64,000 nucleotides of DNA from an uncultured delta proteobacterium. Lineage in GTDB: Bacteria > Desulfobacterota > Desulfomonilia > Desulfomonilales > Desulfomonilaceae. The stretch covers positions 512,001 through 576,000 of the forward strand of contig CAWBKB010000001.1 of assembly GCA_963789265.1 (NCBI GenBank), in the 5' to 3' direction. The position numbers and the translations under genes are program-made. Numbering within the stretch: position 1 is the stretch's first letter; each line of letters begins with the position of its first letter. Below the pieces are notes generated by a model, which saw nothing but the letters and a program-made list of their open reading frames with translations, made no database searches and was not told where the DNA came from. Below are positions 11,661 through 32,774 of the stretch, piece after piece.

Positions 11661-12152
11661 TCACCTGGTCTGTCTCTTTTTTTTCTTTGTCTCGATTTCT
11701 TCGCGGATCGAGGCCGGGTCACCGAAATAAATGCAGTGAGCCAGGCATACATTGTCCGCGCAGGCAGGAATAAGTCCCTGATCGACACGATGATGGCAGA
11801 GGTTGCACTTCAGCGCCTTTTGGCTGTTGTCGTCGAAGCCTATGGCATTGTACGGGCAGGCGTCAACGCAGCTTTGGCATCCCGTGCATGCGGCCTCGTC
11901 GAGTACCACGATTCCGTCTTCCCTCTTCGTGATCGCTCCCTCAGGGCAGGCATCGGCGCAGGGCGGATCGTCGCAGTGGCGGCAAACATTGACCCGATAC
12001 ATGTAATCAGTCATGCCGTCACCCAACGAAGGGCCTTCTTCAGTAGCCAGCAGGAACTTGGCCTTGAATTCAAATTCCTGGCTGCAGGCGGCCTCGCACG
12101 TCCGACAGCCCCAACATGCCTCGTCATCTATAATCAGCCCGTATTTGCTCAC
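11661..12152 (-). CDS. 4Fe-4S dicluster subunit (DmsB-like)
   Basis: CWGCRTCEAAC, CRHCDDPPCADACP, CTGCQSCVDACPY, KCNLC; overlaps the stop of the Mo enzyme gene. Confidence 0.9.
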   Translation of the reverse strand: MSKYGLIIDDEACWGCRTCEAACSQEFEFKAKFLLATEEGPSLGDGMTDYMYRVNVCRHCDDPPCADACPEGAITKREDGIVVLDEAACTGCQSCVDACPYNAIGFDDNSQKALKCNLCHHRVDQGLIPACADNVCLAHCIYFGDPASIREEIETKKKKRQTR

Positions 12153-14314: not shown

Positions 14315-14316
14315 GT

Positions 14317-15183
14317 TTAATCCTCCTGTTGTGCAGCCGGCTCCTGCGACGTCCGGAACATTGACGTATTTGCGTGTCCCGCGCCTACGTGCGGGGCGCC
14401 TCCAATCAATTCGGAAAATCTCTTTGCCGCGGCCGCGATATCGGCGCCGAATTCCTTCGCGAAATCCTGCGGAAAAGTTCCTACAATCGCCATCGATCCC
14501 ATGAGCCGTCCCCCGGGACCGAACACCGGCGAAGCCACCGCATTAATGCCGATTTTCATTTCGCCCAGATCCAAAGCAAACCCGGTTCTTCGGCATTGGT
14601 CCAATTCCTGCTCAAGGCGATGCAGATCAAACCTGGAGGGACCGCCGTGGAAATAGGGCTTCGAACTGCCAAGGACCTTTTTTCGTTCGGTATCGGGCAG
14701 GAAGGCTACTATCGCCTTTCCATGAGCGCCCCAAGCAATGGGGAATCTGTGCCCGAGTCTGATGGTCAATCCGATTTCCTGCGTACCTTCGTCTCTGGCG
14801 ACAACGAACACGTGATTTTCTGAGACCACCCCCAAGAAAGCAGTGCTGTTCGTTTTGCATGAAAGCTCTTGAAGAAAAGGGGCCGCAACCTCTCGTATGT
14901 CGAGACCGGTCAAGACTCTGTTGGCCAAGAAAAGCAGACCGAGTCCCAGAGAATAAGTCTTGTCATTGGGGGATTTTTGGACAAATGCGAACTGTTGCAA
15001 GGTGTTCAGGATAGAATATCCCTTGCTCTTGTGAATGCCCACTTCGTTGCAAATCTCGGTCAAACTCATCTTTGCAACGGGGGCTTGAGCGAGCGCGAGC
15101 AAAATGCGTGAAGCCTGCTCCACCGCAGGGACAACCGAGGAATATTGGGGTTTGGCTGGAGCAGACTCTCTCTTCGATGCCAT
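14317..15183 (-). CDS. IclR family transcriptional regulator
   Basis: VPAVEQASRIL..HTH, GAHGKAIVAF, GINAVASPVF. Confidence 0.92.
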   Translation of the reverse strand: MASKRESAPAKPQYSSVVPAVEQASRILLALAQAPVAKMSLTEICNEVGIHKSKGYSILNTLQQFAFVQKSPNDKTYSLGLGLLFLANRVLTGLDIREVAAPFLQELSCKTNSTAFLGVVSENHVFVVARDEGTQEIGLTIRLGHRFPIAWGAHGKAIVAFLPDTERKKVLGSSKPYFHGGPSRFDLHRLEQELDQCRRTGFALDLGEMKIGINAVASPVFGPGGRLMGSMAIVGTFPQDFAKEFGADIAAAAKRFSELIGGAPHVGAGHANTSMFRTSQEPAAQQED

Positions 15184-18598: not shown

Positions 18599-20674
18599 TC
18601 ACAAACGCCGCTCGACAAGGATGACGGAAATCTCTCCCTCTCCGTACTGTTCCAGGTAGCGGCGATCCACTCCCACACAATGATCTATGTAGCAGCATCG
18701 GGCTTTAAGACATGCTTTCGGCGTCTCATTGTGCCCCATGTTGTCGGCATTGCTCACCATGTCATCGGCTTCTCGCCTCTTGATGCGCACTTCGTTCCGG
18801 CAGTTCCCAATATGTGGCAGGTGAGGAGCAATACAATAAGGCACGTTGTCAAGAATTGTCAGCGGATATTCCTGCGAGTTTATAGTGGACAATTTTTCTT
18901 TTAGAGAAGAGAGTCGGCACATGCGGCCTCTGTTGACATAAGCATTTCCATCCCATTCGGGCAGACACAGGCAATGGGCAGTAGTGCCGGCGAATCCCAG
19001 AATTTTATCCATGAGCCATTCTATCTCAGGCAGATTAAGTTCGTTAAGGCATGTGTTGACGCTAAGCCGTTCGGGTGAAACGTCATTTATCAGGCTGACA
19101 GCTCTGTACGCTTCCACAAAGCTGCCTTTCCGCCTGACGATTCGGTCGTGTGTTTCTCCGACCCCGTGCAGGGAAACCCAGAAATTCTTCATTCCCGCAT
19201 TTGTAAGTGAGAAAACCAGCTCTTCGGTTATTCCGAACCCATTGGTAAACATGAACAAGTTGTCGATTCCGTGTTCTTTTGCGAAACGAACGTAGTTCAC
19301 AAGCGAGGGGTTCAGAGTGGGTTCACCCGCGCCTGTAAAGAAAAGGGTCTTGATCCCTGCGCGGCTGGACTCCTCAATGAAATCGAATACTTCTTGATCC
19401 AAGTTAGGCGGGTTCTTACTCCTATCGTATGCCGGTGCGCAAAAGATGCAGTTGTTGGTGCACTCGAAACTTGAAAATACTACCGCCCCGGGTTCAGGCC
19501 ATCCCCAGACCAATGATCGCGATTTATCTGCACGGGTCGCGGTCCAGCCCTGCCATTTTTTCGGGTTGGTGAGAACCCGGTCTTCAACGAACGCGAATAC
19601 CTTTTTGTAAGTTTCACAGTACGGATCGGGGTGATCAGGGCTGCCTTCAGCGCTCATTGCTCTTACCGGACAGCCGCCATTGCAAAGTGGCAAATATTTG
19701 CAATCAAGGCATTCTGAGTTGCCGATCAAATTGGCCGTCCGCTCGGCGAGTTTCATTCTCATCGGCGATGTCAACAGCATGCCGAGATCATCGGATTCGA
19801 GAAGATTGCCAAAATTCCGGTCAGGATAGGAGCCCATCCACGCATCGCATTGACTCACTTCACCGCCGGGCCCGACGCAGAAAAAGCCATTTACGCAGTT
19901 TGGGCAGAAGAAGCACGGAATCTTTGCCGCAGCATCCCCCAATGTTATCCGTTCTACGATTCCCTCGTAAGGATCCAAGCGAACTCCGTCATCCCCGGAG
20001 AAGTAAACATCAAGCAGACCGACTAAGAAATCGCCCAGCATCGATGGGTCCAGGAACAATTGATCCGCCAGATGGGAAGCCGGTCCCGAGGCGAAGGGGG
20101 TATTCAATTGAATGCTCTTTAAGCCCAATTCATCTACGTAATACCGGTAAAAGTCCGAAGGGGACACTGAGAGAGTCTGTTTGTTGGGGACCGATATCAC
20201 GGACGCAGACAGGCCTCTGGAGCGAGCAATTCTGTACCTGTCAGCCCAGTGCTCATTATATGAATCGCCCGACAGGCCGCGGAATCTCCGGTGTACATTG
20301 GGATAATCCAGGGACGACCCGACGGTTCCGTCAAAAAGTTCCCATATCACCGGGTCCCAAACGGGATCGTAATCCATGAGGTTGGTCTGCAAATAAAGTT
20401 TAATTTTCAGATTGTGATTTGACATGAACGATCTTATCATACGGCCCGCTGTCAGACACCACTCGGGAGATAGAACCGTAATTTCTCCACCTTGCCAGTA
20501 CACGTCGACACTCTTAACTCCGGAGCGCGAAAGATACGAAGATATGCGGCTGAAAACAGTTTCCAAGTCTTCGAGGGACATGCTTTCCCGAGTTCTTGGT
20601 TCGAAACAGTACGCACAATTACAATTGCAATGGAAAGTAGGCACAAATATTATACTTACTTGAGGGCCGAACAT
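18599..20674 (-). CDS. Protein with two radical SAM domains (rSAM-SPASM fused to a second rSAM with a Cys-rich tail)
   Basis: CNCNCAYC and WQGGE; SPASM C..C..GEVSQC, CLDCKYLPLCNGGC..PYC; second CTNNCIFC and GAGEPTL; CLKARCCYIDHCVG tail. Confidence 0.88.
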   Translation of the reverse strand: MFGPQVSIIFVPTFHCNCNCAYCFEPRTRESMSLEDLETVFSRISSYLSRSGVKSVDVYWQGGEITVLSPEWCLTAGRMIRSFMSNHNLKIKLYLQTNLMDYDPVWDPVIWELFDGTVGSSLDYPNVHRRFRGLSGDSYNEHWADRYRIARSRGLSASVISVPNKQTLSVSPSDFYRYYVDELGLKSIQLNTPFASGPASHLADQLFLDPSMLGDFLVGLLDVYFSGDDGVRLDPYEGIVERITLGDAAAKIPCFFCPNCVNGFFCVGPGGEVSQCDAWMGSYPDRNFGNLLESDDLGMLLTSPMRMKLAERTANLIGNSECLDCKYLPLCNGGCPVRAMSAEGSPDHPDPYCETYKKVFAFVEDRVLTNPKKWQGWTATRADKSRSLVWGWPEPGAVVFSSFECTNNCIFCAPAYDRSKNPPNLDQEVFDFIEESSRAGIKTLFFTGAGEPTLNPSLVNYVRFAKEHGIDNLFMFTNGFGITEELVFSLTNAGMKNFWVSLHGVGETHDRIVRRKGSFVEAYRAVSLINDVSPERLSVNTCLNELNLPEIEWLMDKILGFAGTTAHCLCLPEWDGNAYVNRGRMCRLSSLKEKLSTINSQEYPLTILDNVPYCIAPHLPHIGNCRNEVRIKRREADDMVSNADNMGHNETPKACLKARCCYIDHCVGVDRRYLEQYGEGEISVILVERRL

Positions 20675-20677
20675 AAT

Positions 20678-21520
20678 CTACTCCGCGACCTCTTCCGCTT
20701 TAGCAAGGTCATCGGCGATTTCCTTCGCGTTCACTTTGATCGCATTAAAAACTTCGAGAAAAGGTCCGCAGTCGAAGTCAGTGTCAACAAAACGAAGGTA
20801 GCCTTCACATAAATCGAACCTCTCGCAAGAAACGCATTTGGAACCGGACAAGACAAGGTCCTTTTTGCGGTTTATCAATTGCTTGTAAAGATCGGATTCT
20901 TCATCAATTTGCAGACCACCGGAAACCTCACCCAAGAACTTCCCGGCGCGGGCAAGTCTGGCAGAAGCCGTAACTCTTCCCAATTCGTCGACATAGAGGA
21001 ATTCCGACGGAGATTCAGGATAAAGTTTCGGGAGCGCCAACACGTTTCCTCTCAAACAGGCGCTGATCATGGAATGGAAAAAATCAACCGGAACCTGCAC
21101 ATGAGTGTCGTGCAAATAATAATTCAGTACGGACAACAGTTCACTTGTATCTGACAGCTCTTCAAGGTCCATCGTGACAGGGACCATAGCCGAGGCCGCG
21201 ATCTTCACACCTTGCAGGAGCCCTTTGTCCACATTAATAAGAGCTTCGAGTGAGAACCGATCGACGAGCCAGGTATTTGTGTAGAGCTGAGGAGCGCACT
21301 TTGGATGCAATTTGAGCCGAATCGGAAGCTGCAGCGGAAGAGCCGACAAACTATGCAGGTTCTCACTCGGATATTCCAACTCCACTCCCTTTACTCGATC
21401 GCCCAGCGTTTTATATGTGTTCACGATATCTCCGCAATTCCCTGAACGCAGGACGATATCATGAGAGTCGACTTCAGCAGCCAATCTCGGAGGAATACTT
21501 ATCAATGCTGAATTATGCAT
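20678..21520 (-). CDS. SPASM-like domain protein lacking a radical SAM CxxxCxxC motif
   Basis: ATG at 21520 overlaps the upstream stop (ATGCATAA) after GAGG; FLYVDELGRV..FLGEV, CVSCERFDLCEG..DC. Confidence 0.75.
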   Translation of the reverse strand: MHNSALISIPPRLAAEVDSHDIVLRSGNCGDIVNTYKTLGDRVKGVELEYPSENLHSLSALPLQLPIRLKLHPKCAPQLYTNTWLVDRFSLEALINVDKGLLQGVKIAASAMVPVTMDLEELSDTSELLSVLNYYLHDTHVQVPVDFFHSMISACLRGNVLALPKLYPESPSEFLYVDELGRVTASARLARAGKFLGEVSGGLQIDEESDLYKQLINRKKDLVLSGSKCVSCERFDLCEGYLRFVDTDFDCGPFLEVFNAIKVNAKEIADDLAKAEEVAE

Positions 21521-22601
21521 CAACTGCCTCGAAAAATTCCTTGTACCCTTCACACCAGATAGTCTTTCGCAGCCGCCCGGAAGCTGCCGCGCAGCCCCCG
21601 GCGCAATATTTCCACCAATTACAGGAACCGCACTCGTTTTGCGTGATCAACTTTCTCCTTTGGGAACGCCAAAACGCGTCGGGGTGAGATAGTAACTTGT
21701 CAAGCGGCTCAGAGGTTATGTTGCCGATTTTACCGGACGCGATGTCGAGGAGTCTCACGCACGGATAAACGTCACCTTCCGGCGAGATAGCCAAAGTAGG
21801 CTCGCAACAGTTCAGAGACTCAGAGTACGTCCGAGTGGAATCAGAGTCAACTGACGAAATTTCTTCCCAATTTACGAACGGTTCGACGGGCAACGAACTA
21901 TCGTCCCCTTTCCATGCGCGGTGAACTTCTCTGAGAAAAAGCCCCCAGGATCGCGGGTCCAGACGGGCACCTTCGAACGTATTCGCGGGCTCTTCAAGAG
22001 GTATAAGAGTTAGGCTATCCACTCCCAGGTTCTTGAAATAGTAATAGATTTCCTTGCCACGGTCTATTGATCGACCGTGCACAACATACACCATTCCAAC
22101 GTGAAATCCGCGACTTCTGACAATCTCGAAGCCCTCATACCAACGTTTCAGATAAGAGTCCCCGTTCTTGAGCCTCCTATAGTCCTGGAACGGATCAAGA
22201 GAAGTCCCGATCCCGCCTCCATTCAGAAGCTCGGCCAGAGTGTCTGCAAGCCCTTCTGTTGCCAACGTCAAATTGGACTGCATTATGTGCATCGGGCTGT
22301 TCTTGAGGATCGTTCGGTTTAGCTCCAAGACCTTCTTGTAAAAGGGCTCGCCCATCAGCATGGGTTCTCCCCCATGCCATAGGATTGTCATGTGACAGCC
22401 CGGATTTCCTTCCATGTAATTCGCGAGATTTCGGAACGTGCATTCAACGAGGGCGGGATCGGCGATTTTCGGCCTTTCTGCGACATTGCAGTAAGCGCAC
22501 TTCCCGTTGCATTGGAGAGTCGGTTTGATAACAACTTCAATGCACTTGGGCGCTTCACAGTTATTTTCAGAGGTATATGCCATAGTCAGTGGAGCCGCCA
22601 A
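21513..22601 (-). CDS. Radical SAM/SPASM peptide maturase (anSME-like); alternative start ATG 22583
   Basis: KPTLQCNGKCAYC, WHGGEPML, QSNLT, CCEPTLAISPEGDVYPC, CGSCNWWKYCAGGC..WC. Confidence 0.9.
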   Translation of the reverse strand: MAAPLTMAYTSENNCEAPKCIEVVIKPTLQCNGKCAYCNVAERPKIADPALVECTFRNLANYMEGNPGCHMTILWHGGEPMLMGEPFYKKVLELNRTILKNSPMHIMQSNLTLATEGLADTLAELLNGGGIGTSLDPFQDYRRLKNGDSYLKRWYEGFEIVRSRGFHVGMVYVVHGRSIDRGKEIYYYFKNLGVDSLTLIPLEEPANTFEGARLDPRSWGLFLREVHRAWKGDDSSLPVEPFVNWEEISSVDSDSTRTYSESLNCCEPTLAISPEGDVYPCVRLLDIASGKIGNITSEPLDKLLSHPDAFWRSQRRKLITQNECGSCNWWKYCAGGCAAASGRLRKTIWCEGYKEFFEAVDA

Positions 22602-22759: not shown

Positions 22760-22791
22760 CCTCTCCTGATTCGCGGGCAAATCAGGAGAGG
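22760..22791 (-). other. Perfect 12 bp stem-loop between the precursor and first maturase gene
   Basis: CCTCTCCTGATT-8nt-AATCAGGAGAGG with no U-tract on the minus strand. Confidence 0.7.
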
Positions 22792-22833: not shown

Positions 22834-23187
22834 CTACCAATTACCCCACACACGGCGGTGCCGCCGCCGCCAGGGCCTGTTGCCCCACACACGGCAGCCG
22901 CCGTTACCCCACACGCGGCATCCATACCACCGCCTACCGCCGTTACCCCACACTCGGCAGCGCAAGAACTGAGATTCCATGGACTCGTCGTTTGTCCCCT
23001 CCTGGTCTGGGAGACCTTCGCGGGTCGCACCCGGTTCCAACGATTCCCTCGGTCCTTCGTCGGAGCCGGATGCTTCGGAAATCCCCAGGACAGCAGTGGC
23101 CACCACTATCGACGACCATTTGCCGAGACTCGTGAGAAATGATCTCCTGCTTAGAGTCTCGTCGTCTTTCTTGTTCTTGTCGTCCAT
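22834..23187 (-). CDS. Putative RiPP precursor (117 aa) with twin-arginine signal and four RVWGN repeats
   Basis: GGAGGA RBS before ATG 23187; SRRSFL plus hydrophobic stretch; acidic linker; core CRVWGNGGRRWYGCRVWGNGGCRVWGNRPWRRRHRRVWGNW; directly upstream of rSAM genes. Confidence 0.85.
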   Translation of the reverse strand: MDDKNKKDDETLSRRSFLTSLGKWSSIVVATAVLGISEASGSDEGPRESLEPGATREGLPDQEGTNDESMESQFLRCRVWGNGGRRWYGCRVWGNGGCRVWGNRPWRRRHRRVWGNW

Positions 23188-23348
23188 TTTATCTCCTCCA
23201 AACGAAACCAAAACAATCGGTTAATCTGAATGAATTTTCCTGTGCGCACATCGGCCGGTCCTGGAAACACCCGGCCCACTCAATCACTAATTCTCCAACC
23301 CAAGAGCAACTTCGTGCAAGGCCGTTCACCCTTAAAAGAAGCCCCTGG

Positions 23349-23834
23349 CTATTTCCCCGGTGGAGGCGGTTGCTCGGGGAACGAGAAATGGGACTGAATC
23401 AGGAGCCATTTGCCGTCCTTCTTCTCAAGCACTCCCGACCATAGACCCATTTGCTGAAACTTGTCTTCCCCGGTATCGACGTCGAACAACACCTCGGTGG
23501 CAAACCACCCCACGTCATCCTTAGACCCGACCGACGTCCATTTGTACTGTCCCTTTACCGATTTTACTTCCTTTAGACTGCCCTCATAAGCCGCTCTGAC
23601 CTGGTCCGTGCCTACGTAGCGCCCTTTTTCGTCGGCTTCAAAGAAAACCACGTTAGCTTCTGGCGCAATCATCTTCATTATTGCGTTCACGTCCTTCTTC
23701 GAATAGGCCGCTTGAAATTGAGCGAGGAAGTTTTTGATCTCTTGGTCGGTCTTGGAATCTGCCGTTGCGACTGTCGTCGCCCCGATTGTAATTGCCGTCG
23801 CGATACTCAGCACCAGTAGAATTGCACTTCGCAT
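23349..23834 (-). CDS. Secreted SnoaL-like/NTF2-fold protein
   Basis: Signal peptide; AAYSKKDVNAI, WSGVLEKKDGKWLLIQSHFSFP. Confidence 0.85.
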   Translation of the reverse strand: MRSAILLVLSIATAITIGATTVATADSKTDQEIKNFLAQFQAAYSKKDVNAIMKMIAPEANVVFFEADEKGRYVGTDQVRAAYEGSLKEVKSVKGQYKWTSVGSKDDVGWFATEVLFDVDTGEDKFQQMGLWSGVLEKKDGKWLLIQSHFSFPEQPPPPGK

Positions 23835-24208: not shown

Positions 24209-24856
24209 ATGGAAATTAATCGAAAACTGAGCATATTATTGGTCCTGGTGGCCGTATCATTCGCCGTGACCACAGTATCGGTTTTGCCTGCGTGGGCGGC
24301 CACCGGCAAGTCCAAACAGGCCTCTGTAAAGGCCAAGAAACGGCATTTGTCCTACAGGGCGAGGCGGATAAAAAAAGTCAACGGCTCCTATATTCCGCAA
24401 GCGCAGCCGCGAACCGTTGCGAGTGCTCCTGCCACGGTCTGTTATGGAAGTTGGCAGCAATCCTTGTATGGGCCGGTCTATACATCATGGTGCCAAGCAG
24501 CAACCGCTTCCAGTCAAGGCTCCGGACAGGCTGAAGGCTGGGCCGCACCGGCACGATCGTCCGGGAGACAAAGCGGGGCAGCACCCCCGGCCGGTGGATA
24601 CGCTCCCCCACCCCAGCAGGTAAATGTCATTAGCCCGCCAGCAAGCGTCTGTTACAGCGGTTGCGTTCCTTATTGGACCGGTCAGGTTTACTCATCGTGG
24701 TGTCAGCCGGCCACCGCCTACAACGCTAACTCCGAACAAACAACTAACTGGGCAGTCCCGGCTCAAACGTACAGAACTCAGAGCTATGCGGCCCCTCAGG
24801 CCGGTCAACCCGGTACTGTCTGCAATGTTGGCAGTTGGCTGCCTTGTTGGTGGTAG
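24209..24856 (+). CDS. Secreted Cys/Trp-containing repeat protein
   Basis: GGAGA RBS, signal peptide ..LPAWA, basic segment, two ~60-70 aa repeats plus a partial third. Confidence 0.7.
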   Translation: MEINRKLSILLVLVAVSFAVTTVSVLPAWAATGKSKQASVKAKKRHLSYRARRIKKVNGSYIPQAQPRTVASAPATVCYGSWQQSLYGPVYTSWCQAATASSQGSGQAEGWAAPARSSGRQSGAAPPAGGYAPPPQQVNVISPPASVCYSGCVPYWTGQVYSSWCQPATAYNANSEQTTNWAVPAQTYRTQSYAAPQAGQPGTVCNVGSWLPCWW

Positions 24857-25648: not shown

Positions 25649-26116
25649 CTAGTCGATTTGTTCCACCAAATAGTTTTGGATTCCCATTTGTGAGATCTGG
25701 TCCTGTTGAGCTTCAAGCCAGTCGATATGGCCTTCCTCTTCTTGCAGAATGTGCTCGAGCAATTCCTTTGTACCGCCGTCTGCGAGCTCGGCCGAAAGCT
25801 TGATCCCGTCGTTGTATGACTGAATGGCATCATATTCGGACTGCCAATCGTTCTTGTGCTGTGTTTCAACTTCTGCACCGATATGTATTTCTTTTAGTTT
25901 ACTGACAACAGGGCGTCCTTCAAGAAAAAGGATGCGTGCGATCAGCTTTTCCGCGTGTTTCATCTCGTCGATTGCACGTTTTTCGTCTGCCTTGTGGAGG
26001 CGTTCGTATTGCCAATTGTCACACATCTCAGCATGAACCATGTACTGATTGATTGCCGTCAATTCGTCCGCGAGTAGATCGTTGAGCTTTTCGATAATTC
26101 TTTCATTCCCTTTCAT
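25649..26116 (-). CDS. bfr: Bacterioferritin
   Basis: MKG..LNDLLADELTAINQY, IDEMKHAE, EEEGHIDWLE, GIQNYL. Confidence 0.96.
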   Translation of the reverse strand: MKGNERIIEKLNDLLADELTAINQYMVHAEMCDNWQYERLHKADEKRAIDEMKHAEKLIARILFLEGRPVVSKLKEIHIGAEVETQHKNDWQSEYDAIQSYNDGIKLSAELADGGTKELLEHILQEEEGHIDWLEAQQDQISQMGIQNYLVEQID

Positions 26117-26722
26117 TTCGGCCCCTTTCTGTAATTTTAGTTGGGCTTGCTCCCCCGAAAATTGAGTTTTTCGCCCCGATCTCAGGCTACCTCACCGTAG
26201 TGCCGCCAGTCAATGATCTTTGGCTATTGCCCTTGAGATAGTATTTCAACGCGGAGAATGCGGAGAACGCGGAGAATTCTCCTTTTTGCGGACGCCTGCC
26301 GATCCGGCACGGCGCATTCCGGTCTGTCTCAGTGACGGCAAGACCGAGCCGACTGAATCCGCCGGTTACTCATATAAAGCTCGAACGAGTTGGCTTTCGT
26401 CTCTGCGTTCTCCGCTCCCTCAGCGGTAGATCCTGATCGGCCGCTGAACGGATGCGTTCCGTCCGAAACTTTTGTGGGAACATCTCCGGCATTCGGGTTT
26501 CTTACATTGCTAAATGCACGGACCCGTTGATTGATACGATGGTGAAAAAAGAAAGGGCGTTCCGAACCAATACACTTGGGAATGTCCGATATCGCGACAC
26601 TCACTTGAACGTGCACCGGCATCAAAGTGGATCCACGGCTCCGGAATAAATTACGCCGCGGAGGAAAGACTATGAGAGGAACAGGAGAATTGATAATGCA
26701 GCCGCAAAGGGGAAGCTCTGAT

Positions 26723-26992
26723 ATGTCTACTTTTCGAAGGTCCAGCGCAGACTATGAACAGAGATTGAGCCAGTGGGGATGCCCGAATTGTGATTTCTTC
26801 GAGCAAAGGATTTTCAGAAGGCGCCGGTCTTCGCGTGAAAGCGACGCTTACGCGATTTGTCGGTGTTCCGGGGAGCCGGTCGACCTAATTTGGGAAGCTA
26901 CCGTGTGCCCTAAGAGCGCCGATTCCGAAAGAAGTGGACATCGTAGCCGATTCAGCCGCGTCCGACGGCGAGACCGCAGAGACGCAGCCTGA
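26723..26992 (+). CDS. Small Cys-containing hypothetical protein (start uncertain)
   Basis: CPNC..CRC..C pattern; several candidate ATGs with purine-rich upstream sequence. Confidence 0.35.
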   Translation: MSTFRRSSADYEQRLSQWGCPNCDFFEQRIFRRRRSSRESDAYAICRCSGEPVDLIWEATVCPKSADSERSGHRSRFSRVRRRDRRDAA

Positions 26993-27037
26993 CACGCGAC
27001 GGTGAGGCTTGGAGCCTGCACAAGGAGGCTGAACCCC

Positions 27038-27280
27038 CTATAAGGAGCCCGGCTCGGTCCATCGGAACACGACTAGTCCTTCTTTGTCTCTAAAGGACCC
27101 GATTATGATGAGGATCAGGTCGATAAGTGCCCAGATCGTAAATCCTCCGAAAGTTACAAGCATCAAAATTCCGGTTCCGATTTTACCTACGTAGAATCTG
27201 TGAACCCCAAATACTCCGAAGAGCAGGCACAGTATCATGGCCACGAGCCTGGACTTGGGCGAAATGACTGAGTTATCCAT
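27038..27280 (-). CDS. TM2 domain membrane protein
   Basis: KSRLVAMILCLLFGVFGVHRFYVGKIGTGIL..WALIDLILI. Confidence 0.92.
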   Translation of the reverse strand: MDNSVISPKSRLVAMILCLLFGVFGVHRFYVGKIGTGILMLVTFGGFTIWALIDLILIIIGSFRDKEGLVVFRWTEPGSL

Positions 27281-27353
27281 GTTTCCGACCTCTTTTCTTT
27301 GACTATTCCCCATATGGGCAACTCTTAACCTATAAAGCGTTCACGGGGTCTTA

Positions 27354-27498
27354 GGCTTGGCGGTCAGGGACACCAGCCTGAGGAGCATAGGCTTCAGTGG
27401 AGCGGTCCCGCGCTGAACGTGGGATTGTCCGCCATCTGAGGGACACCAGCCCCACCGGGATCATAGCACAGGTCCCGCGCGATACGGCATGGCGGTCA
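27354..27498. repeat. Tandem duplicated structured element
   Basis: AGGGACACCAGCC..CATAG..GGTCCCGCGC at 27366-27413 and 27439-27480; GGCWTGGCGGTCA at both flanks. Confidence 0.6.
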
Positions 27499-27690
27499 CT
27501 CACTATGTACGCTTCTCAATTCCGAAGATCAGTTGTTGATAACCTTCTCTCAAGAGCCAATCTAACGATTATTTAATCCTCTGTTAATGTAAATCCAACC
27601 GGACAACCATAAACTGCATCGGACCACTTTGCGCGTCAAAAGCCGAGACGACAAGATAAAGTGGCGTTGTTGAGGCAATGCGGAGGAACA

Positions 27691-29955
27691 ATGTGCGGTC
27701 TAAGGCGACCCTTCGGGCTAGAGTTTGCAACCCCTATGAAAGTTCTGACCCTGGCATTGGTATTGGGTCTAGCCATACTGCCGGTGCTGGGCTCCATTGT
27801 ATGGAGCATGTATGATTCTATGTCAAGAATGGGGACCGAAGAACTCCATCTTCAACGGCTTGCCGGAACGATCGCCCACCTTAATGAAGCCCTCACCATG
27901 TATGCAAGACTGGCAGCCGCCACCGGAGATCCAAAATGGGAGAAGCATTATCGGGCTGTGGAACCCGAACTCGACGATGCCATTGTGCAAGTGGCCATGC
28001 GTGCACGCCGGCAGTATGAGAAGACTTACGTTGCCCAGACAAAGCTCGCATATACAAAATTGATAGAAATGGAATCCGTGGCCTTGGCCCTTGTCCGCCG
28101 AGGCCGGCACCAAGAAGCTTCAGAACTCCTTTTTAGCCCGCAATATGACCGGCAGAAAGCACTGTATTCTCAAGGGATCAAGAAGATGACCGAAGCGGTC
28201 CGCAAACGGATTGCAAAAGAAATTGCATCGTTCCGTAAACGCATCTGGCTGATGGGTTTGCTGGGAGCCGCCCTTCTTATAGGTCTCCTTGCAGCTTGGC
28301 TGGGCGCTTACCTGGTTGTTAACAGGCACCTTGCATCGCGCAGACAATCCGAAGACGCATTAGCCGCAGAGAAGGAGCGTCTCGCCGTCACATTACGTTC
28401 GATCGGCGAAGGAGTGATTACCACAGATACCGCAGGGCGAGTTACCTTAATGAATCGTGTGGCGGAAGAACTCACCGGTTGGCATCAGGAGGCGGCTACA
28501 GGCAAAGCATTAGATGAGGTATTCGTGACGCTGGACCCCAAGACAGGAGAGCGGATCCAAAATCCTGTGAAAGACGTCCTCAAACAAGGCTCAGCCTGCG
28601 AACTCCCCAACGAGGCCCGCCTGACTTCCAAAGACGGCGTCGAACGGACGGTAGCCTGTAGTGGGGCGCCTATACGGGATAAACAGAGCGCGGTCGTTGG
28701 TGTCGTTATTGTTTTTAGGGACACCACCGAACAGCAATACATGCTCAAAGAAGCATTGAAGGCAGAAAAGCTGGAATCCGTTGGGATATTGGCCGGCGGA
28801 ATAGCCCACGACTTCAACAACATTTTGACCGCGGTTCTGGGCAATCTTTCTCTAGCCAAAGAGCAGGTAGATCCGCGGAGCGAGGTGTTTCAGAGATTGT
28901 CTCATGCCGAAAAGGCCTCCATGAAGGCCAAGGGCCTCACCCACCAACTCCTGGCCTTTTCCAAAGGGGGGGCTCCGATCAAGAAGGCCGCTTCTATTCG
29001 TGAACTCCTGATGGAGTGGTCGAGTTTCGCGTTGAAGGGTTCAAACGTGACATGTGAGTTCAGCATTCAAGACGATCTTTGGCACACGAAAATAGACGAG
29101 GGCCAGGTCGGCCAAGTCATTCACAATCTTGTCATCAACGCCGATCAGGCAATGCCCGACGGAGGAACCATCCGGATATCGGCTGAAAACATCATGTTGA
29201 GTCCTGGCGAGAGCCTTCCGCTCAATCCGGGACAATATATAAAAATATCTGTCGCAGACCAAGGTGTTGGAGTGGAGCCGGAGCATCTACAGAAGATATT
29301 TGATCCTTATTTCACAACGAAGCGGGAGGGGAGCGGCCTCGGCCTCGCCACCTCTTATGCCATAATAAAGGGACATGAAGGCCATATTACAGTAGATTCA
29401 AGCCCGGGTCTCGGTACGACGTTCAGCATATTCCTGCCCGCATCCGAAAGTCATACATTGGCGAGAGTCGAATGCGCCGGTTCTTTTCAAAAAGGCCAAG
29501 GAAAAGTGCTCGTTATGGACGACGAACAGGTAATTCGACAGCTCACAAGTGAGATGCTTACTAACCTGGGGTACCAGGTCTGCATCGCAAAGGACGGCTC
29601 TGAGGCCCTGAGCGTCTTCGAGCGCTTCAAGAAACGTGGCGATCCGTTTGACGCGGTAATCATGGACTTGACCATTCGTGGGGGCATGGGAGGCAAAGAA
29701 GCAATAACGAAATTGCTTGACCTGGATCCTGAAGTCAAAGCGATAGTTTCCAGCGGTTACTCCAATGATCCCATCATGTCGGACTTCAGAAGATACGGCT
29801 TTGCTGGAGTGCTTGCCAAACCGTATACCGCCACTGAGATGAGCAGAGTGCTGTATACGCTCATAAGCGAGAAGAATAGCAGGCATCGTGGCAGCCCGGA
29901 TGGGTCCGTGAGCGGGACCTATAGGAGCCTATCGGTAATGGCAAAGAAGATGTGA
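27691..29955 (+). CDS. Membrane-bound hybrid sensor kinase (periplasmic domain, PAS, HisKA, HATPase, REC)
   Basis: Two TM helices, GGIAHDFNNIL, GSGLGL, IMDLTIRGGMGG; GGAGGA RBS. Confidence 0.92.
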   Translation: MCGLRRPFGLEFATPMKVLTLALVLGLAILPVLGSIVWSMYDSMSRMGTEELHLQRLAGTIAHLNEALTMYARLAAATGDPKWEKHYRAVEPELDDAIVQVAMRARRQYEKTYVAQTKLAYTKLIEMESVALALVRRGRHQEASELLFSPQYDRQKALYSQGIKKMTEAVRKRIAKEIASFRKRIWLMGLLGAALLIGLLAAWLGAYLVVNRHLASRRQSEDALAAEKERLAVTLRSIGEGVITTDTAGRVTLMNRVAEELTGWHQEAATGKALDEVFVTLDPKTGERIQNPVKDVLKQGSACELPNEARLTSKDGVERTVACSGAPIRDKQSAVVGVVIVFRDTTEQQYMLKEALKAEKLESVGILAGGIAHDFNNILTAVLGNLSLAKEQVDPRSEVFQRLSHAEKASMKAKGLTHQLLAFSKGGAPIKKAASIRELLMEWSSFALKGSNVTCEFSIQDDLWHTKIDEGQVGQVIHNLVINADQAMPDGGTIRISAENIMLSPGESLPLNPGQYIKISVADQGVGVEPEHLQKIFDPYFTTKREGSGLGLATSYAIIKGHEGHITVDSSPGLGTTFSIFLPASESHTLARVECAGSFQKGQGKVLVMDDEQVIRQLTSEMLTNLGYQVCIAKDGSEALSVFERFKKRGDPFDAVIMDLTIRGGMGGKEAITKLLDLDPEVKAIVSSGYSNDPIMSDFRRYGFAGVLAKPYTATEMSRVLYTLISEKNSRHRGSPDGSVSGTYRSLSVMAKKM

Positions 29956-30308
29956 CATGCACCACGCCGACGCGAATACCATTAGAGGAAGACTTACCAA
30001 AGAGTGCGCCGAGAACACGGAGAAAAAAGATAGTTTATCCAGCGTCATGTGAGACAGCGGCGCGTATGTTCACGTTGGAATTGGCTCCACAGTCACATAC
30101 TGGAATTTGCTTTGCTCCATCGGCCGTGCCTGCACCGAAAACAGACTTGTCAGCGATCTCTGTGTTCTTCGTGGTGGATTGTTGCCATTTAGGTGATTGC
30201 TGTACACGCGGTCTGAGAGGATTTGTCGGCTTTCATAGGCATTCACGTTCAGACTTATAAGAAAATCCCCTCTATAGCCGTTGCCAAGAGTAATGACCTG
30301 TTCACCAC

Positions 30309-30394
30309 CCGTCACCCCGGCGAAGGCCGGGGTCCAGTCCCGCGAGGAACGCGGGATTGAAAAGACTGGATTCCGGCCTCCGCCGGAATGACGG
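30309..30394. repeat. CGTC-type REP doublet; related copy at ~46441-46499
   Basis: CCGTCACCCCGGCGAAGGCCGGGGTCCAGTC ... GACTGGATTCCGGCCTCCGCCGGAATGACGG. Confidence 0.7.
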
Positions 30395-30619
30395 TGTCAG
30401 GCTACTTCTAATCGGACAAAACTTTTGGCAATGGGTATAAGCTCCTTCCTTGATAAAGATAGTGATAGGGGGATTTCAGATACGAATTAGCGTTAGCCGC
30501 TTCCGCAGTGATGGAAAAACCTTGATCAAGGAGCCCAAGGCCACTAAGATGAGACTGTAGCCGCAAATTATGGGGGATTTTGTGTAATTTAACTACCACA
30601 CATCCTGAGGAGGACAATC

Positions 30620-31201
30620 ATGGGAGCCAAGAAGATTTTGATGCTCGTCGGGGATTACGTCGAGGATTACGAGGTCATGGTGCCGTTTCAGGCCTTACTA
30701 ATGGTGGGGCATACGGTTCACGCAGTTTGCCCTGACAAAAAAGCCGGCGATGCCGTGCGAACCGCAATTCACGATTTTGAAGGGGACCAGACTTACAGCG
30801 AGAAGCGAGGTCACAATTTCGCCTTGAATGCGACTTTCTCGGAAATAAAGGCCGAGGATTACGATGCCCTGGTGATTCCGGGCGGTCGAGCCCCGGAATA
30901 CATCAGATTGAACGAAGCGGTGCTCGAGGCAGTTCGCCATTTTGCCGAGAAAAACAAACCTATAGCTGCCATCTGCCACGGCGCCCAGGTTCTGGCCGCG
31001 GCCGGCGCGGTAGGGGGTAAATCTTGCTCGGCCTATCCGGCGGTAGGTCCCGACGTAAATAGCGCGGGCGGGAAATGGGTTAATATTCCAATGGATAAGG
31101 CATACGTGGATGGAAACCTCGTGAGTGCGCCTGCCTGGCCGGCACACCCGGATTGGCTGGCCAAGTTTCTCCAGGTGCTTGGGACGAAGATTGAGCCGTA
31201 G
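30620..31201 (+). CDS. DJ-1/PfpI family protein
   Basis: [23 protein letters not shown]. Confidence 0.94.
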
Positions 31202-31339
31202 CAGAGGTCAGCGGACCGCCCGGCAATCAAGCCCGCGGGTCTGTGGGGGATCACCGTCCCGCGAGCCGTGGGACCGCCCTGGGCGAAGGCCATCCGCCCC
31301 TACATACCGTCAATTGGCCAACTTGACGGACCGGTCATC

Positions 31340-31528
31340 CGAAGGTGTCTCAAAACACGAAATCCTCCCACCCTATCCCTCGCCCTTTGGGAGAGGGGAG
31401 ACTCTGATAGCTGCTTTGGTACAGCTCCTTCTCCCTATGGGAGAGGGTTGGGGGGAGGGCAAGAACTTACGAATCAGGCCCAAGCGTGGCACGATTTTAG
31501 TCATCAAAATAGTTTTGAGACGGTTTCT
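31340..31528. mobile_element. Non-autonomous MITE with IS1182-like ends
   Basis: GAAGGTGTCTCAAAA ... TTTTGAGACGGTTTCT; internal CCCTCGCCCTTTGGGAGAGGG also present in the 7728-7938 element. Confidence 0.65.
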
Positions 31529-31664
31529 GTTCGGCTGTCTTCACCTGTAAACCATTATCTTGCCGTCTATCCGACCTTGGGGGCACCGCAGCCGGCGCCC
31601 CCTAAGAAAAGCAGTTTTCTGGTTAGTTAGTTTTTTTGTCGTGTCTTACGCACAAACCAGGCTA

Positions 31665-32774
31665 TTACTTGTGTGTCGACTGATCGGTTTGTTTCCAGAT
31701 CGGGTCCCCACCTTTTGCCATTATCCGTTTTGCCCAATCCGATTCGATCAGATTGTATACGTTGACGGGGATCGGCACGTAATGGAGTTCAGAGGCCATT
31801 GGAGTCCCGTGCTTATAGCACCAGTCGAAATACTTCAACATGGCTAAAGCTTTCGCCTTGTCCGGCTGTTCCTTGTACAGGAGAATGTATGACGCACCGG
31901 TGATAGGCCAGCTCTTTTCACCAGGCTGATCGGTAAGCACCATGTAAAATCCCGGGGCATTCTTCCAATCCGCGCTAGCGGCCGCAGCCTGGAACGCCTC
32001 AATAGTTGGGGCGACGAATTTGCCCGACTGGTTCTGGAGTTGAACCCACTTTAAATTTTTCTTCAACGCCCACGCATATTCAACATAGCCGATGGTCCCG
32101 TCAGTTTTCTTGACCAGCGCCGAGACTCCCTGGTTTCCTTTACCACCTATGCCTGTAGGCCAAGAAACGGACTTGTCGTTGCCGACCTTATCCCGCCATT
32201 CGTCGGATACTTTGCTCAGATAATTGGTGAAAATCCAGGTGGTCCCGGAGCCGTCAGCCCTGTGCACCACAGTGATTTCCTGGTCGGGCAATTTCATATC
32301 CTGGTTCACCGCCATGATCTTCTTGTCATTCCATTTTTTGATTTTGTCGAGGTAGATGTCAGCCAACAATTCCGGAGTAAGCTTCAGTTTTCCTTTTCCG
32401 ATGCCTTGAATGTGGACTATCGGCACCACTCCACCCATTATCATGGGGAACTGCATAAGACCGTGGCTGTCGAGCTCCTCGGCTTTTAGGGGCTTGTCGG
32501 ATGCCCCGAAGTCAACGGTCTTCGCCTTGATCTGGGCTATTCCGCCGCCCGATCCGATTGCCTGATAACTCAGCTTTAAGCCCGTATTCTGATTATACTT
32601 TGTGGCCCATTTCGCATAAACGGGATAGGGGAAAGTGGCCCCGGCACCGCTTAGACTCTCAACGTCCGGAGAAGCGCTTGCAATAAATCCCGGCTGCAAA
32701 ATCAGCAGCACCCCGATAAGAAGCGCGAGCTTAAAGACCAAGGTTGAATTGCGTCGTCTGGCCCGTCCCTCCAT
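31665..32774 (-). CDS. pstS: Phosphate ABC transporter substrate-binding protein
   Basis: GAGATFPYP, YQAIGSGGG, DFGASD, HRADGSGTT, WPITGASY. Confidence 0.96.
   Translation of the reverse strand: MEGRARRRNSTLVFKLALLIGVLLILQPGFIASASPDVESLSGAGATFPYPVYAKWATKYNQNTGLKLSYQAIGSGGGIAQIKAKTVDFGASDKPLKAEELDSHGLMQFPMIMGGVVPIVHIQGIGKGKLKLTPELLADIYLDKIKKWNDKKIMAVNQDMKLPDQEITVVHRADGSGTTWIFTNYLSKVSDEWRDKVGNDKSVSWPTGIGGKGNQGVSALVKKTDGTIGYVEYAWALKKNLKWVQLQNQSGKFVAPTIEAFQAAAASADWKNAPGFYMVLTDQPGEKSWPITGASYILLYKEQPDKAKALAMLKYFDWCYKHGTPMASELHYVPIPVNVYNLIESDWAKRIMAKGGDPIWKQTDQSTHK

Follow-up and report, generated by a model that had tools for sequence, protein, structure and literature searches.

A conserved radical SAM operon in Desulfomonilaceae headed by a CRVWGN-repeat precursor with a twin-arginine-type leader: a candidate source of crosslinked peptides

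Triceptides carry links from an aromatic residue to a C-beta carbon, made on aromatic-X-X motifs (PMC11499958, excerpt). For OscB, the reported bond runs from Trp C7 to the C-beta of Asn or Asp, and for XncB from Trp C6 to the C-beta of Arg or Asn (PMC11002830, excerpt); the dynobactin maturase forms a carbon-carbon bond between Trp and Asn (PMC10288494, excerpt). The GrrA/OscA1 precursors (TIGR04260) have a signal peptide at the N-terminus, then a spacer and, at the C-terminus, a [W/F]-x-N array often ending in ...NW, and in their clusters a radical S-adenosylmethionine (rSAM)/SPASM gene similar to that of the anaerobic sulfatase-maturating enzyme (anSME) adjoins the precursor, with no dedicated exporter seen. 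The same layout is present at the locus described here, which lies in a 64,000-nt stretch (the window, meaning that whole stretch) of contig CAWBKB010000001.1 from an uncultured member of the Desulfomonilaceae and is headed by a small precursor gene at positions 22834..23187 of the minus strand.

On balance, and with some reserve, we take this gene to encode the precursor of an undescribed ring-crosslinked peptide made by rSAM enzymes, in which Trp-Asn cyclophanes would be formed in the cytoplasm, the Cys residues would be modified and the product would be exported through the twin-arginine translocation (Tat) pathway. Its membership in an rSAM-modified system of ribosomally synthesised, post-translationally modified peptides (RiPPs) is well supported. 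The precursor gene and its parts are the following:

22834..23187, minus strand: precursor gene, 117 amino acids plus stop (translation; 50 homologous clusters in the precursor alignment A1; mostly synonymous codon differences in the core)
23193..23199, minus strand: ribosome-binding site GGAGGAG, 5 nt before the ATG (read from the sequence)
23065..23187, minus strand: twin-arginine signal-like leader, residues 1-41, with the RR pair at 23143-23148 (conservation in A1; matches to Tat-signal models)
22969..23064, minus strand: acidic spacer, residues 42-73, net charge -8 (alignment, codon comparison, charge count)
22837..22968, minus strand: cationic core, residues 74-117, net charge +12, with four (C/R)RVWGN units (translation, codon and unit counts)

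The translation reads MDDKNKKDDETLSRRSFLTSLGKWSSIVVATAVLGISEASGS...FLRCRVWGNGGRRWYGCRVWGNGGCRVWGNRPWRRRHRRVWGNW followed by the stop codon or, divided into its parts, MDDKNKKDDETL-SRRSFLTSLGKWSSIVVATAVLGISEA-SGSDEGPRESLEPGATREGLPDQEGTNDESMESQ-FLRCRVWGNGGRRWYGCRVWGNGGCRVWGNRPWRRRHRRVWGNW. The ATG was taken as the start because the homologues too begin with MDD; an upstream TTG was rejected on the same ground. Tat signals follow the consensus S/T-R-R-x-F-L-K, with an uncharged h-region and a small-x-small cleavage site. The leader has this layout: SRRSFL is followed by the hydrophobic stretch WSSIVVATAVLGI and then by a cleavage-like site, SEA/S (the slash marks the putative cut). Read against the consensus, the motif is S-R-R-S-F-L-T, with Thr at the position of Lys, and leads through WSSIVVATAVLGIS to the same SEA/S site, the uncharged stretch being about 14 residues long. 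A preliminary description, made from the sequence of the window, had pointed out this twin-arginine N-terminus with its hydrophobic region and SEA/S site, a spacer of about 30 residues rich in Asp and Glu, and an Arg/Trp/Gly-rich core ending in WGNW with four WGN motifs, three of them with Cys at -3. All of these features are present in the translation, the spacer measuring 32 residues at -8 and the core 44 residues at +12.

The codons of the four RVWGN units begin at 22959, 22920, 22896 and 22857; Cys stands at -3 in three units and Arg in the last, and the protein ends in WGNW. The units vary only synonymously (Arg CGA/CGC/CGT/CGT, Gly GGT/GGT/GGC/GGT, Asn AAC/AAC/AAC/AAT). In the six-frame translation of the 64-kb window RVWGN occurs four times, always inside the precursor gene. 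The simpler motif W-x-N occurs 64 times in the 127,996 six-frame residues, which would give 0.022 occurrences in a core of 44 amino acids, where four are observed.

A word-indexed search of 5.8 billion proteins with the precursor returned 50 homologous clusters, which were aligned as A1; in what follows, P numbers denote homologous protein clusters, L numbers the genomic loci compared, and A2 the pseudo-rSAM profile. The few clusters that bear names come from Desulfomonilaceae or Thermodesulfobacteriota metagenome-assembled genomes, one being named by NCBI as a twin-arginine signal protein. R14 is invariant; at least 90% of the rows preserve R15, S16, F17 and L18, as well as the GKWS..VVA stretch and three RVWG(N) units; the spacer is the least conserved region apart from its REG.PG and DES.E.Q motifs. 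Unit statistics were taken from 47 of the 50 rows, leaving out the frameshifted P0011, P0032 and P0036. These rows contain 146 xR[VI]WGx units, 142 of them with Cys at -3, and the last position is Asn in 138 and His in 8. The RR pair and the W-x-N motif, whose lack of conservation in homologues would by the preliminary description have refuted it, are both retained in the family. Members carry one to six units, most commonly three, and 37 of the 47 end in CRVWGN[R/W]; the hexapeptide is fixed and the gap between units ranges from 1 to 12 residues.

Codon differences between the window precursor and nine orthologues were compared as raw counts, which are not a normalised ratio of non-synonymous to synonymous rates. 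In the core, synonymous differences outnumbered non-synonymous ones in 9/9 comparisons, and in the spacer non-synonymous differences equalled or exceeded synonymous ones in 8/9. The preliminary description had taken the synonymous variation among the repeats as support for selection on the peptide. The precursor gene is real, conserved and under selection as a coding sequence.

When the A1 profile was run against 1.84 billion representatives, only 15 matches were obtained at E up to 0.001, indicating a small family of narrow distribution. Apart from family members, the matches were paralogues of the type found on contig C7 of the same genome (see below), one CRVWGH variant and chance matches to repeat proteins. 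Within the order, the profile has matches in 18 of 70 genomes, 12 being full-length and including 6/6 in the genus of the window, and from these sequence matches the family appears so far to be confined to Desulfomonilaceae genomes and metagenomes. P0099, a chance profile match unrelated to the precursor family, is a protein of 354 amino acids with about 14 copies of ...NNMRVWGKR between dibasic sites and looks like an animal neuropeptide precursor.

Downstream of the precursor, on the same strand and in this order, lie the genes of enzyme 1, of a pseudo-rSAM protein and of a fused enzyme 2:

21513..22601, minus strand: rSAM/SPASM enzyme 1, 362 amino acids, anSME-like (Pfam Radical_SAM and SPASM)
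20678..21520, minus strand: pseudo-rSAM, 280 amino acids, rSAM/SPASM fold without CxxxCxxC (predicted structure)
18599..20674, minus strand: fused enzyme 2, 691 amino acids (two Pfam Radical_SAM stretches)
19535-20674, minus strand: N-terminal half of enzyme 2 (2N), about residues 1-380, anSME-like rSAM/SPASM (NCBIfam and PDB matches)
18602-19528, minus strand: C-terminal part of enzyme 2 (2C), about residues 383-691, third rSAM domain, containing a separate CxxxCxxC and more conserved Cys (Pfam, NCBIfam, PDB)

From its ATG on, the pseudo-rSAM gene shares 8 nt with the end of enzyme 1, and enzyme 2 starts 3 nt past the pseudo-rSAM stop. The same four genes stand in the same order in 9/10 loci (the window, L032, L033, L034 and L037-L041), belonging to three Desulfomonilaceae genera; at the tenth, L036, the contig ends after the third gene, and two further contigs, too short, were left out of the count. 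These four are the only genes common to the g26 loci and the g1/g11 loci, and no exporter, transporter or protease was found among the conserved cluster genes of the loci compared. The four genes form a tightly packed, conserved operon headed by the precursor, so that the expected proximity of a RiPP precursor to rSAM genes holds here with three rSAM domains in a single cluster.

Frameshifted copies were also noticed. For the precursor they are P0011, which is the window precursor itself with a shifted N-terminus, P0032, P0036 and L034 8237-8674; the fused enzyme 2 is frameshifted or split between reading frames in L033 and L034. These could be assembly errors or decaying copies and pseudogenes.

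The best NCBIfam scores of enzyme 1 were with DynA (138.8 bits), TIGR04083 (137.5) and anSME (135.4), all far under the respective cut-offs; its nearest solved sequence is anSME 4k37 (E = 5e-19), and in the tree it falls in a separate clade of 9 rows with a support of 99 in the Shimodaira-Hasegawa-like approximate likelihood ratio test (SH-aLRT). Enzyme 2N likewise had DynA (117.6 bits), TIGR04083 and anSME (104.9) as its best models, again far under the cut-offs, and 2C reached 79.8 bits with TIGR04463, a RiPP maturase family with the short model name rSAM_vs_C_rich, and 74.8 with HxsC4. In the PDB, enzyme 2 matched anSME over residues 4-368 and SkfB and PqqE over residues 399-587; an AlphaFold2 (AF2) model of 2C from a 7-row alignment had a mean predicted local distance difference test (pLDDT) of 44.5, too low to be of use. 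An anSME-like rSAM/SPASM maturase beside a precursor with four aromatic-X-X (W-G-N) units is the arrangement known from triceptides. Sactipeptide and ranthipeptide systems have an rSAM maturase with a PqqD-like recognition element; a Pfam scan at E up to 0.01 detected no PqqD-type domain in the three enzyme-like proteins, and no dedicated search for recognition elements was run.

The pseudo-rSAM protein matched no Pfam or NCBIfam family, and all its listed source names are 'hypothetical protein'. Its AF2 model (pLDDT 91.4) had as best PDB matches the triceptide synthase ChlB with leader (9gm3/9gmc, template-modelling (TM) score 0.58-0.62), and it matched anSME structures with TM 0.56-0.58. The homologue P0068 belongs in the Protein Atlas to unnamed clusters, the structural neighbours of which are rSAM/SPASM clusters. 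Since CxxxCxxC is missing while the predicted fold matches ChlB and anSME and the Atlas neighbours are rSAM/SPASM clusters, the 280-amino-acid protein is read as a catalytically dead rSAM/SPASM paralogue. Four C-terminal Cys, C229, C232, C238 and C251, are invariant in it (pattern C-x2-C-x5-C...C). A complex prediction for the pseudo-rSAM with leader residues 1-45 scored 0.02, compared with a mark of 0.32, a value that counts neither for nor against an interaction. The pseudo-rSAM was found in 16/401 sampled genomes of the phylum.

Compared with the known systems, the window family is most likely, judging from its sequences, a cousin of the triceptide and GrrA peptides with its own unit, leader and enzyme set. 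It cannot be counted among the GrrA/GrrM members, since the precursor and enzyme 1 score under the curated cut-offs (31 bits for TIGR04260 and 310 for TIGR04261, the GrrM/OscB model). The GrrA controls P0086, P0088 and P0089 reached 66-83 bits on TIGR04260, have GG[W/F]xN repeats and have GrrM/OscB neighbours of 405-422 bits; TIGR04260 matches 9/50 members of the window family at E up to 10 (best 3.1e-6), and the enzymes of the cousins described below reach 56-78 bits on TIGR04261. Whereas the GrrA core is Gly-rich, the window unit is a fixed CRVWGN hexapeptide in an Arg-rich core; the conserved RRxFL..LGKWS twin-arginine segment and the combination of three rSAM domains with a dead rSAM paralogue likewise set the window family apart from GrrA. 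With the A2 profile (open reading frames of at least 150 amino acids, E up to 1e-3), the pseudo-rSAM was found in 0/75 canonical GrrA loci, 57 of which had an rSAM gene. The hosts differ as well, being anaerobic Desulfobacterota for the window family and, according to record titles, Alphaproteobacteria, Verrucomicrobia or Acidobacteria for GrrA. Canonical Reyranella GrrA precursors (P0089; loci L084-L158) begin with MSKDRRSLRAL and thus have an RR pair in the n-region of their signal.

DynA (NF041298) is the top NCBIfam model for both anSME-like window enzymes and for the enzymes of the cousins. The window enzymes remain far under the cut-offs of 450 to 650 bits for the dynobactin maturase DynA and the darobactin enzymes DarE and DarW, and the dynobactin and darobactin precursors are unrelated to the window precursor, whose core is a repeat array behind a signal-like leader. 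The closest solved sequence for both window enzymes is anSME (TIGR03942, PDB 4k36-4k39), which acts in the cytoplasm on substrates that bear a signal peptide, before their export, and recognises the sulfatase motif C/S-x-P/A-x-R. Both enzymes fall short of the anSME cut-off (135.4 and 104.9 bits against 349), and the window core reads C-R-V-W-G, without the sulfatase motif. The copper-binding bufferins resemble the window precursor in being long and in using a general-secretion signal peptide instead of a dedicated exporter and protease, and their Cys are modified in the cytoplasm before export, as we propose for the window peptide (PMC11626156, excerpt). They differ in their enzymes (MNIO and DUF2063), in a Sec rather than a twin-arginine signal and in having no Trp-x-Asn repeats.

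A RRxF[LF]..GLGKWSxxV/I leader is common to precursors with very different cores across the phylum. Behind it stand GG-W-[AKHSV]-N arrays, WHK repeats, GRGC repeats, RCRCRCRC and His/Asp-rich tandem precursors, as well as, in a second cluster of the same genome on contig C7, a core of W[STGA]N and CRVWGN units. In this second cluster (L004 10441-13119, minus strand) the RR-leader precursor has a His/Lys-rich spacer, six W[STGA]N and three CRVWGN units, and is followed by a pseudo-rSAM of 290 amino acids and a stand-alone rSAM/SPASM enzyme of 373 amino acids, the latter 57% identical to enzyme 2N; P0098 is an orthologue from elsewhere.

Other precursors with related leaders were also observed. 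In genome G027 of the same genus (L035 3548-12865), seven tandem precursors with an NRR[EQ]FFNGLGKWS leader and His/Asp/Pro-rich cores without W-x-N neighbour an enzyme-2N-like rSAM gene and a fusion of 1199 amino acids (HemN-like rSAM, pseudo-rSAM-like domain, methyltransferase). Cousins with GRGC-repeat or WRC[GS]RCRCRCRC cores are found at L043 3826-4275, L044 8792-9202, L045 3558-3842 and L047 9325-9594; the enzyme-1-like gene of L047 is split into two overlapping open reading frames, and at L045 no enzyme was found within 13 kb. At L074 6075-6497 and L077 5787-6143, a looser Tat-like leader, SRREAMKRMAKG, precedes long YYNYGD or YYNYSD repeat cores, which may be Tyr-based counterparts of the W-x-N arrays; these precursors adjoin several rSAM genes and a distant pseudo-rSAM-like gene. 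The leader of the GRGC cousin at L044 aligns to model positions 7-40 of TIGR04117 ('Cys-Xaa-Xaa-Xaa repeat radical SAM target protein') with E = 8.5e-4, and 12/50 CRVWGN members match this model weakly (best E = 0.021), all scores being below the 50-bit cut-off; this suggests that the TIGR04117 family and the window family share a leader type. No match to TIGR04117 over its cut-off was found in the 401 genomes of the phylum.

The loci of this wider group pair enzymes with cores. The five W-x-N-only loci with enough context (L046, L056, L067, L071, L072) all have a pseudo-rSAM and an enzyme-2-like gene (5/5), and no enzyme-1-like gene was found at any of them. Four of these five, those with an enzyme complete enough for the tree, join the enzyme 2N clade of 17 rows (SH-aLRT 97), which holds all the W-x-N loci in the tree, and the cores beside this clade have a constant W and N at i and i+2 (WGN, WAN, WKN, WHN, WSN, WVN). 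An enzyme-1-like gene (32-35% identity) accompanies the core at each of the three Cys-rich loci with a nearby enzyme (L043, L044, L047). From these pairings, the CRVWGN family looks like a combination of a W-x-N module (pseudo-rSAM and 2N), a Cys module (enzyme 1) and a family-specific 2C.

The mechanism that we propose starts in the cytoplasm, where enzyme 2N, probably with the pseudo-rSAM, would join every Trp to the C-beta of the Asn at i+2. Each WGN unit would thereby become a three-residue cyclophane, in the manner of the reactions of OscB/GrrM, XncB and the dynobactin maturase. Enzyme 1, the third rSAM domain or both would modify the Cys at -3 inside its own hexapeptide, a thioether being the leading guess. 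The crosslinked peptide would then leave through Tat by means of the twin-arginine segment, signal peptidase would cut after SEA, and the acidic spacer would balance the Arg/Trp-rich core until its own later removal. The Trp-Asn cyclophanes, already suggested in the preliminary description, are supported by comparison, namely by the constant W-x-N beside the enzyme-2 clade, the GrrA/OscA1 layout and the links made by OscB, XncB and the dynobactin maturase; the chemistry itself is argued by analogy. The same description had considered thioether or disulfide links for the Cys. Complete disulfide pairing is impossible in 31/47 members, where the Cys count is odd, and an all-disulfide arrangement is ruled out for these. 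An N-x-x-C thioether between successive units was rejected on account of the inter-unit spacing of 1 to 12 residues; given this variable spacing and the constancy of the hexapeptide, a Cys would be expected to be linked inside the unit to which it belongs. Taken together with the enzyme-1 relatives beside Cys-Arg-rich cores, the odd Cys counts favour an enzymatic modification of the Cys, within which the thioether stays a guess.

Several observations speak against the proposed chemistry and export. The window protein reached 8.1 bits (E = 3.9) on TIGR04260, enzyme 1 reached 58.6 bits on TIGR04261, and this model was not among the 25 best NCBIfam families listed for enzyme 2; membership in the GrrA/GrrM families thus fails, and the enzymes could have another chemistry. 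On both window enzymes anSME is nearly equal to DynA in score (135.4 against 138.8 and 104.9 against 117.6 bits), and anSME oxidises Cys or Ser rather than crosslinking. His takes the place of Asn in eight units of the 146 (WGH). The pairing of enzymes and cores has its exceptions: L042 has an enzyme-1-like gene yet only one Cys, the Cys-rich L044 also has an enzyme-2N-like gene, the L004 cluster has neither enzyme 1 nor a third rSAM domain in cis, and the tree gives no resolved sister relationship between enzyme 1 and the enzymes of the Cys-rich loci. Moreover, the loci compared are all related and counts across them are not independent, which makes the pairing a lead rather than a statistic. 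On the side of export, where matches to the Tat-signal models were counted at E up to 10, the window protein scored 10.7 bits on PF10518 against a cut-off of 22.7 (26/50 members match) and is not among the 22/50 members matched by TIGR01409; the c-region of the signal is acidic rather than basic; and LGKWS is conserved beyond the needs of export, so that the segment may also, or instead, be a recognition leader for the enzymes.

The fate of the Cys is where the proposed chemistry can be challenged most directly. It is doubtful, although to be reckoned with, that the Cys are not crosslinked by rSAM enzymes at all and serve instead as free thiols that bind a metal or cluster, or become joined by intermolecular disulfides once exported, with enzyme 1 and the third domain acting on Arg or Val (for example by epimerisation) or making a second Trp link. 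Within the hexapeptide, R and V vary no more than C, W and N do, the cousins with GRGC and RCRC repeats resemble metal-binding peptides, Tat cargo is typically cofactor-bound, and L004 on contig C7 has CRVWGN units without an adjoining enzyme 1. However, all three Cys-rich cores with a nearby enzyme have enzyme-1-like genes, the closest sequence relationships of the third rSAM domain are with the sactisynthase SkfB and with TIGR04463, and enzyme 1 of the window could serve the C7 precursor in trans. That the protein is not modified in any way, being a small, secreted, repetitive Arg/Trp-rich envelope protein beside rSAM genes with another substrate, we think very improbable. Its 117 amino acids exceed the length of many RiPP precursors, and modification is read from the genes; yet the four-gene order is kept over three genera in which the flanks differ, other families of the phylum show the pairing of leader and enzymes again with different cores, the same genome encodes a second precursor accompanied by a pseudo-rSAM and enzyme-2 pair of its own, and the curated GrrA/GrrM system follows the same logic.

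For the crosslinked peptide, export through Tat, as put forward in the preliminary description, is plausible from the sequences. The RR pair is retained in every member and cousin seen, and in cousins the A-x-A-like site abuts the core directly (AVA/W, AEA/AAW, ASA/MSW). TatC is encoded in the genome (contig C4, 244.8 bits, over the cut-off; TatA was not searched for), and the conserved genes include no exporter. TIGR02811, whose N-terminus is a Tat signal, matches 46/50 members (best 4e-4). Here too the window protein stays under the cut-off. According to the bufferin study, a macrocyclic peptide should be a poor Sec substrate, and signal peptides are rare on bacterial RiPP precursors (PMC11626156, excerpt). 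A literature search that did not extend to the primary triceptide papers found, among the papers listed, no report of a RiPP precursor with a Tat signal, and none on RiPPs or rSAM enzymes of Desulfomonile.

A different role of the leader would change this picture. In that case RRxFL..LGKWS would be mainly or only a RiPP leader for the rSAM enzymes or the pseudo-rSAM, and the product would stay in the cell, exit by Sec or be anchored in the membrane. LGKWS and the I/V-rich stretch next to it persist over unrelated cores and different enzyme sets and are more conserved than a Tat signal needs; the curated Tat-signal models remain under their cut-offs for the window protein, and several curated GrrA members (P0088 and P0086, for example) have a Sec-type signal without RR. 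We nevertheless judge this unlikely, as the segment shows every element of a cleavable signal (charged n-region, RR, about 14 uncharged residues, small-x-small), the cleavage-like site adjoins the core directly in cousins, TatC is present, and no dedicated exporter or leader protease is conserved; moreover, the roles of leader and export signal are compatible with each other.

The spacer had been suggested to mask the cationic core. Over 47 related rows its mean charge is -6.6 and that of the core +7.7, the sum being +1.1 (sd 1.9) with r = -0.45. The charge balance is consistent with masking, which may be the function of the spacer. Immediately ahead of the core, a conserved E[S/P]Q-WW junction may mark a site of processing. 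Going further, one may picture the first Tat-routed RiPP class, in which the twin-arginine signal doubles as the leader and the dead rSAM paralogue would hold it like a Tat proofreading chaperone until up to three rSAM domains have installed two or three crosslinks per CRVWGN (a Trp-Asn cyclophane and a new Cys link), whereupon a multiply bicyclic cationic peptide would be released into the periplasm of the anaerobe; this extended scheme is speculative, and we would give it only a slim chance.

Two further features belong to the surroundings of the precursor:

22760..22791, minus strand: GC-rich hairpin of 14 bp, about 45 nt past the precursor stop, without a U-tract (fold energy)
23349..23834, minus strand: secreted SnoaL/DUF4440-like protein, 161 amino acids, directly upstream of the precursor (Pfam SnoaL_3, E = 8.7e-17)

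The region of the hairpin has a fold energy of -50.9 kcal/mol over 107 nt (z = -3.4), and a terminator scan called no terminator at 22760..22791. The hairpin is kept, with changes in the stem sequence, only in the closest relative, L032, and other loci have different hairpins; for this reason it is not claimed as a conserved element. It may attenuate read-through, stabilise the transcript or set the ratio of precursor to enzyme transcript. The SnoaL-like protein bears an N-terminal hydrophobic signal-like segment, and its gene stands immediately upstream of the precursor in nine loci, five in the same genus (the window, L032, L033, L034, L041) and four in other families (L053, L056, L067, L072); the g11 and g26 loci yielded no copy. 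Once the peptide is in the periplasm, the SnoaL-like protein may bind it or act upon it.

At 24209-24856 on the plus strand, a secreted-looking protein of 215 amino acids without a family match is duplicated internally (VCYGSWQQSLYGPVYTSWCQ.ATA and VCYSGCVPYWTGQVYSSWCQPATA) and carries CNVGSWLPCWW at its C-terminus; L032, L034 and L041, three relatives from this genus, conserve it beside the cluster. The wider context (11661-15183 and 25649-32774) is ordinary and includes a molybdopterin oxidoreductase with a 4Fe-4S subunit, an IclR regulator, a ferritin-like protein, a PAS hybrid histidine kinase, a DJ-1/PfpI protein and a solute-binding protein of the PBP_like_2 periplasmic-binding-protein family. 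Parts of the stretch are present in 2/3 listed sequencing runs, all from one soil-metagenome study, and there is no RNA run among the three.

Cyclophane peptides made by rSAM enzymes include the BamA-targeting antibiotics darobactin and dynobactin, and new crosslink chemistry has come from new repeat motifs and new enzyme clades. To the triceptide theme the window family adds a fixed Cys-containing hexapeptide, two extra rSAM domains, an obligate-looking dead rSAM partner and one leader over many cores (WxN, WHK, GRGC, RCRC, YYN, His/Asp-rich). The shared leader is a handle on the precursor side for mining Desulfobacterota clusters that current curated models miss. If it is true that the twin-arginine segment drives export, anaerobic crosslinking in the cytoplasm would be coupled to the sole general pathway for folded cargo.

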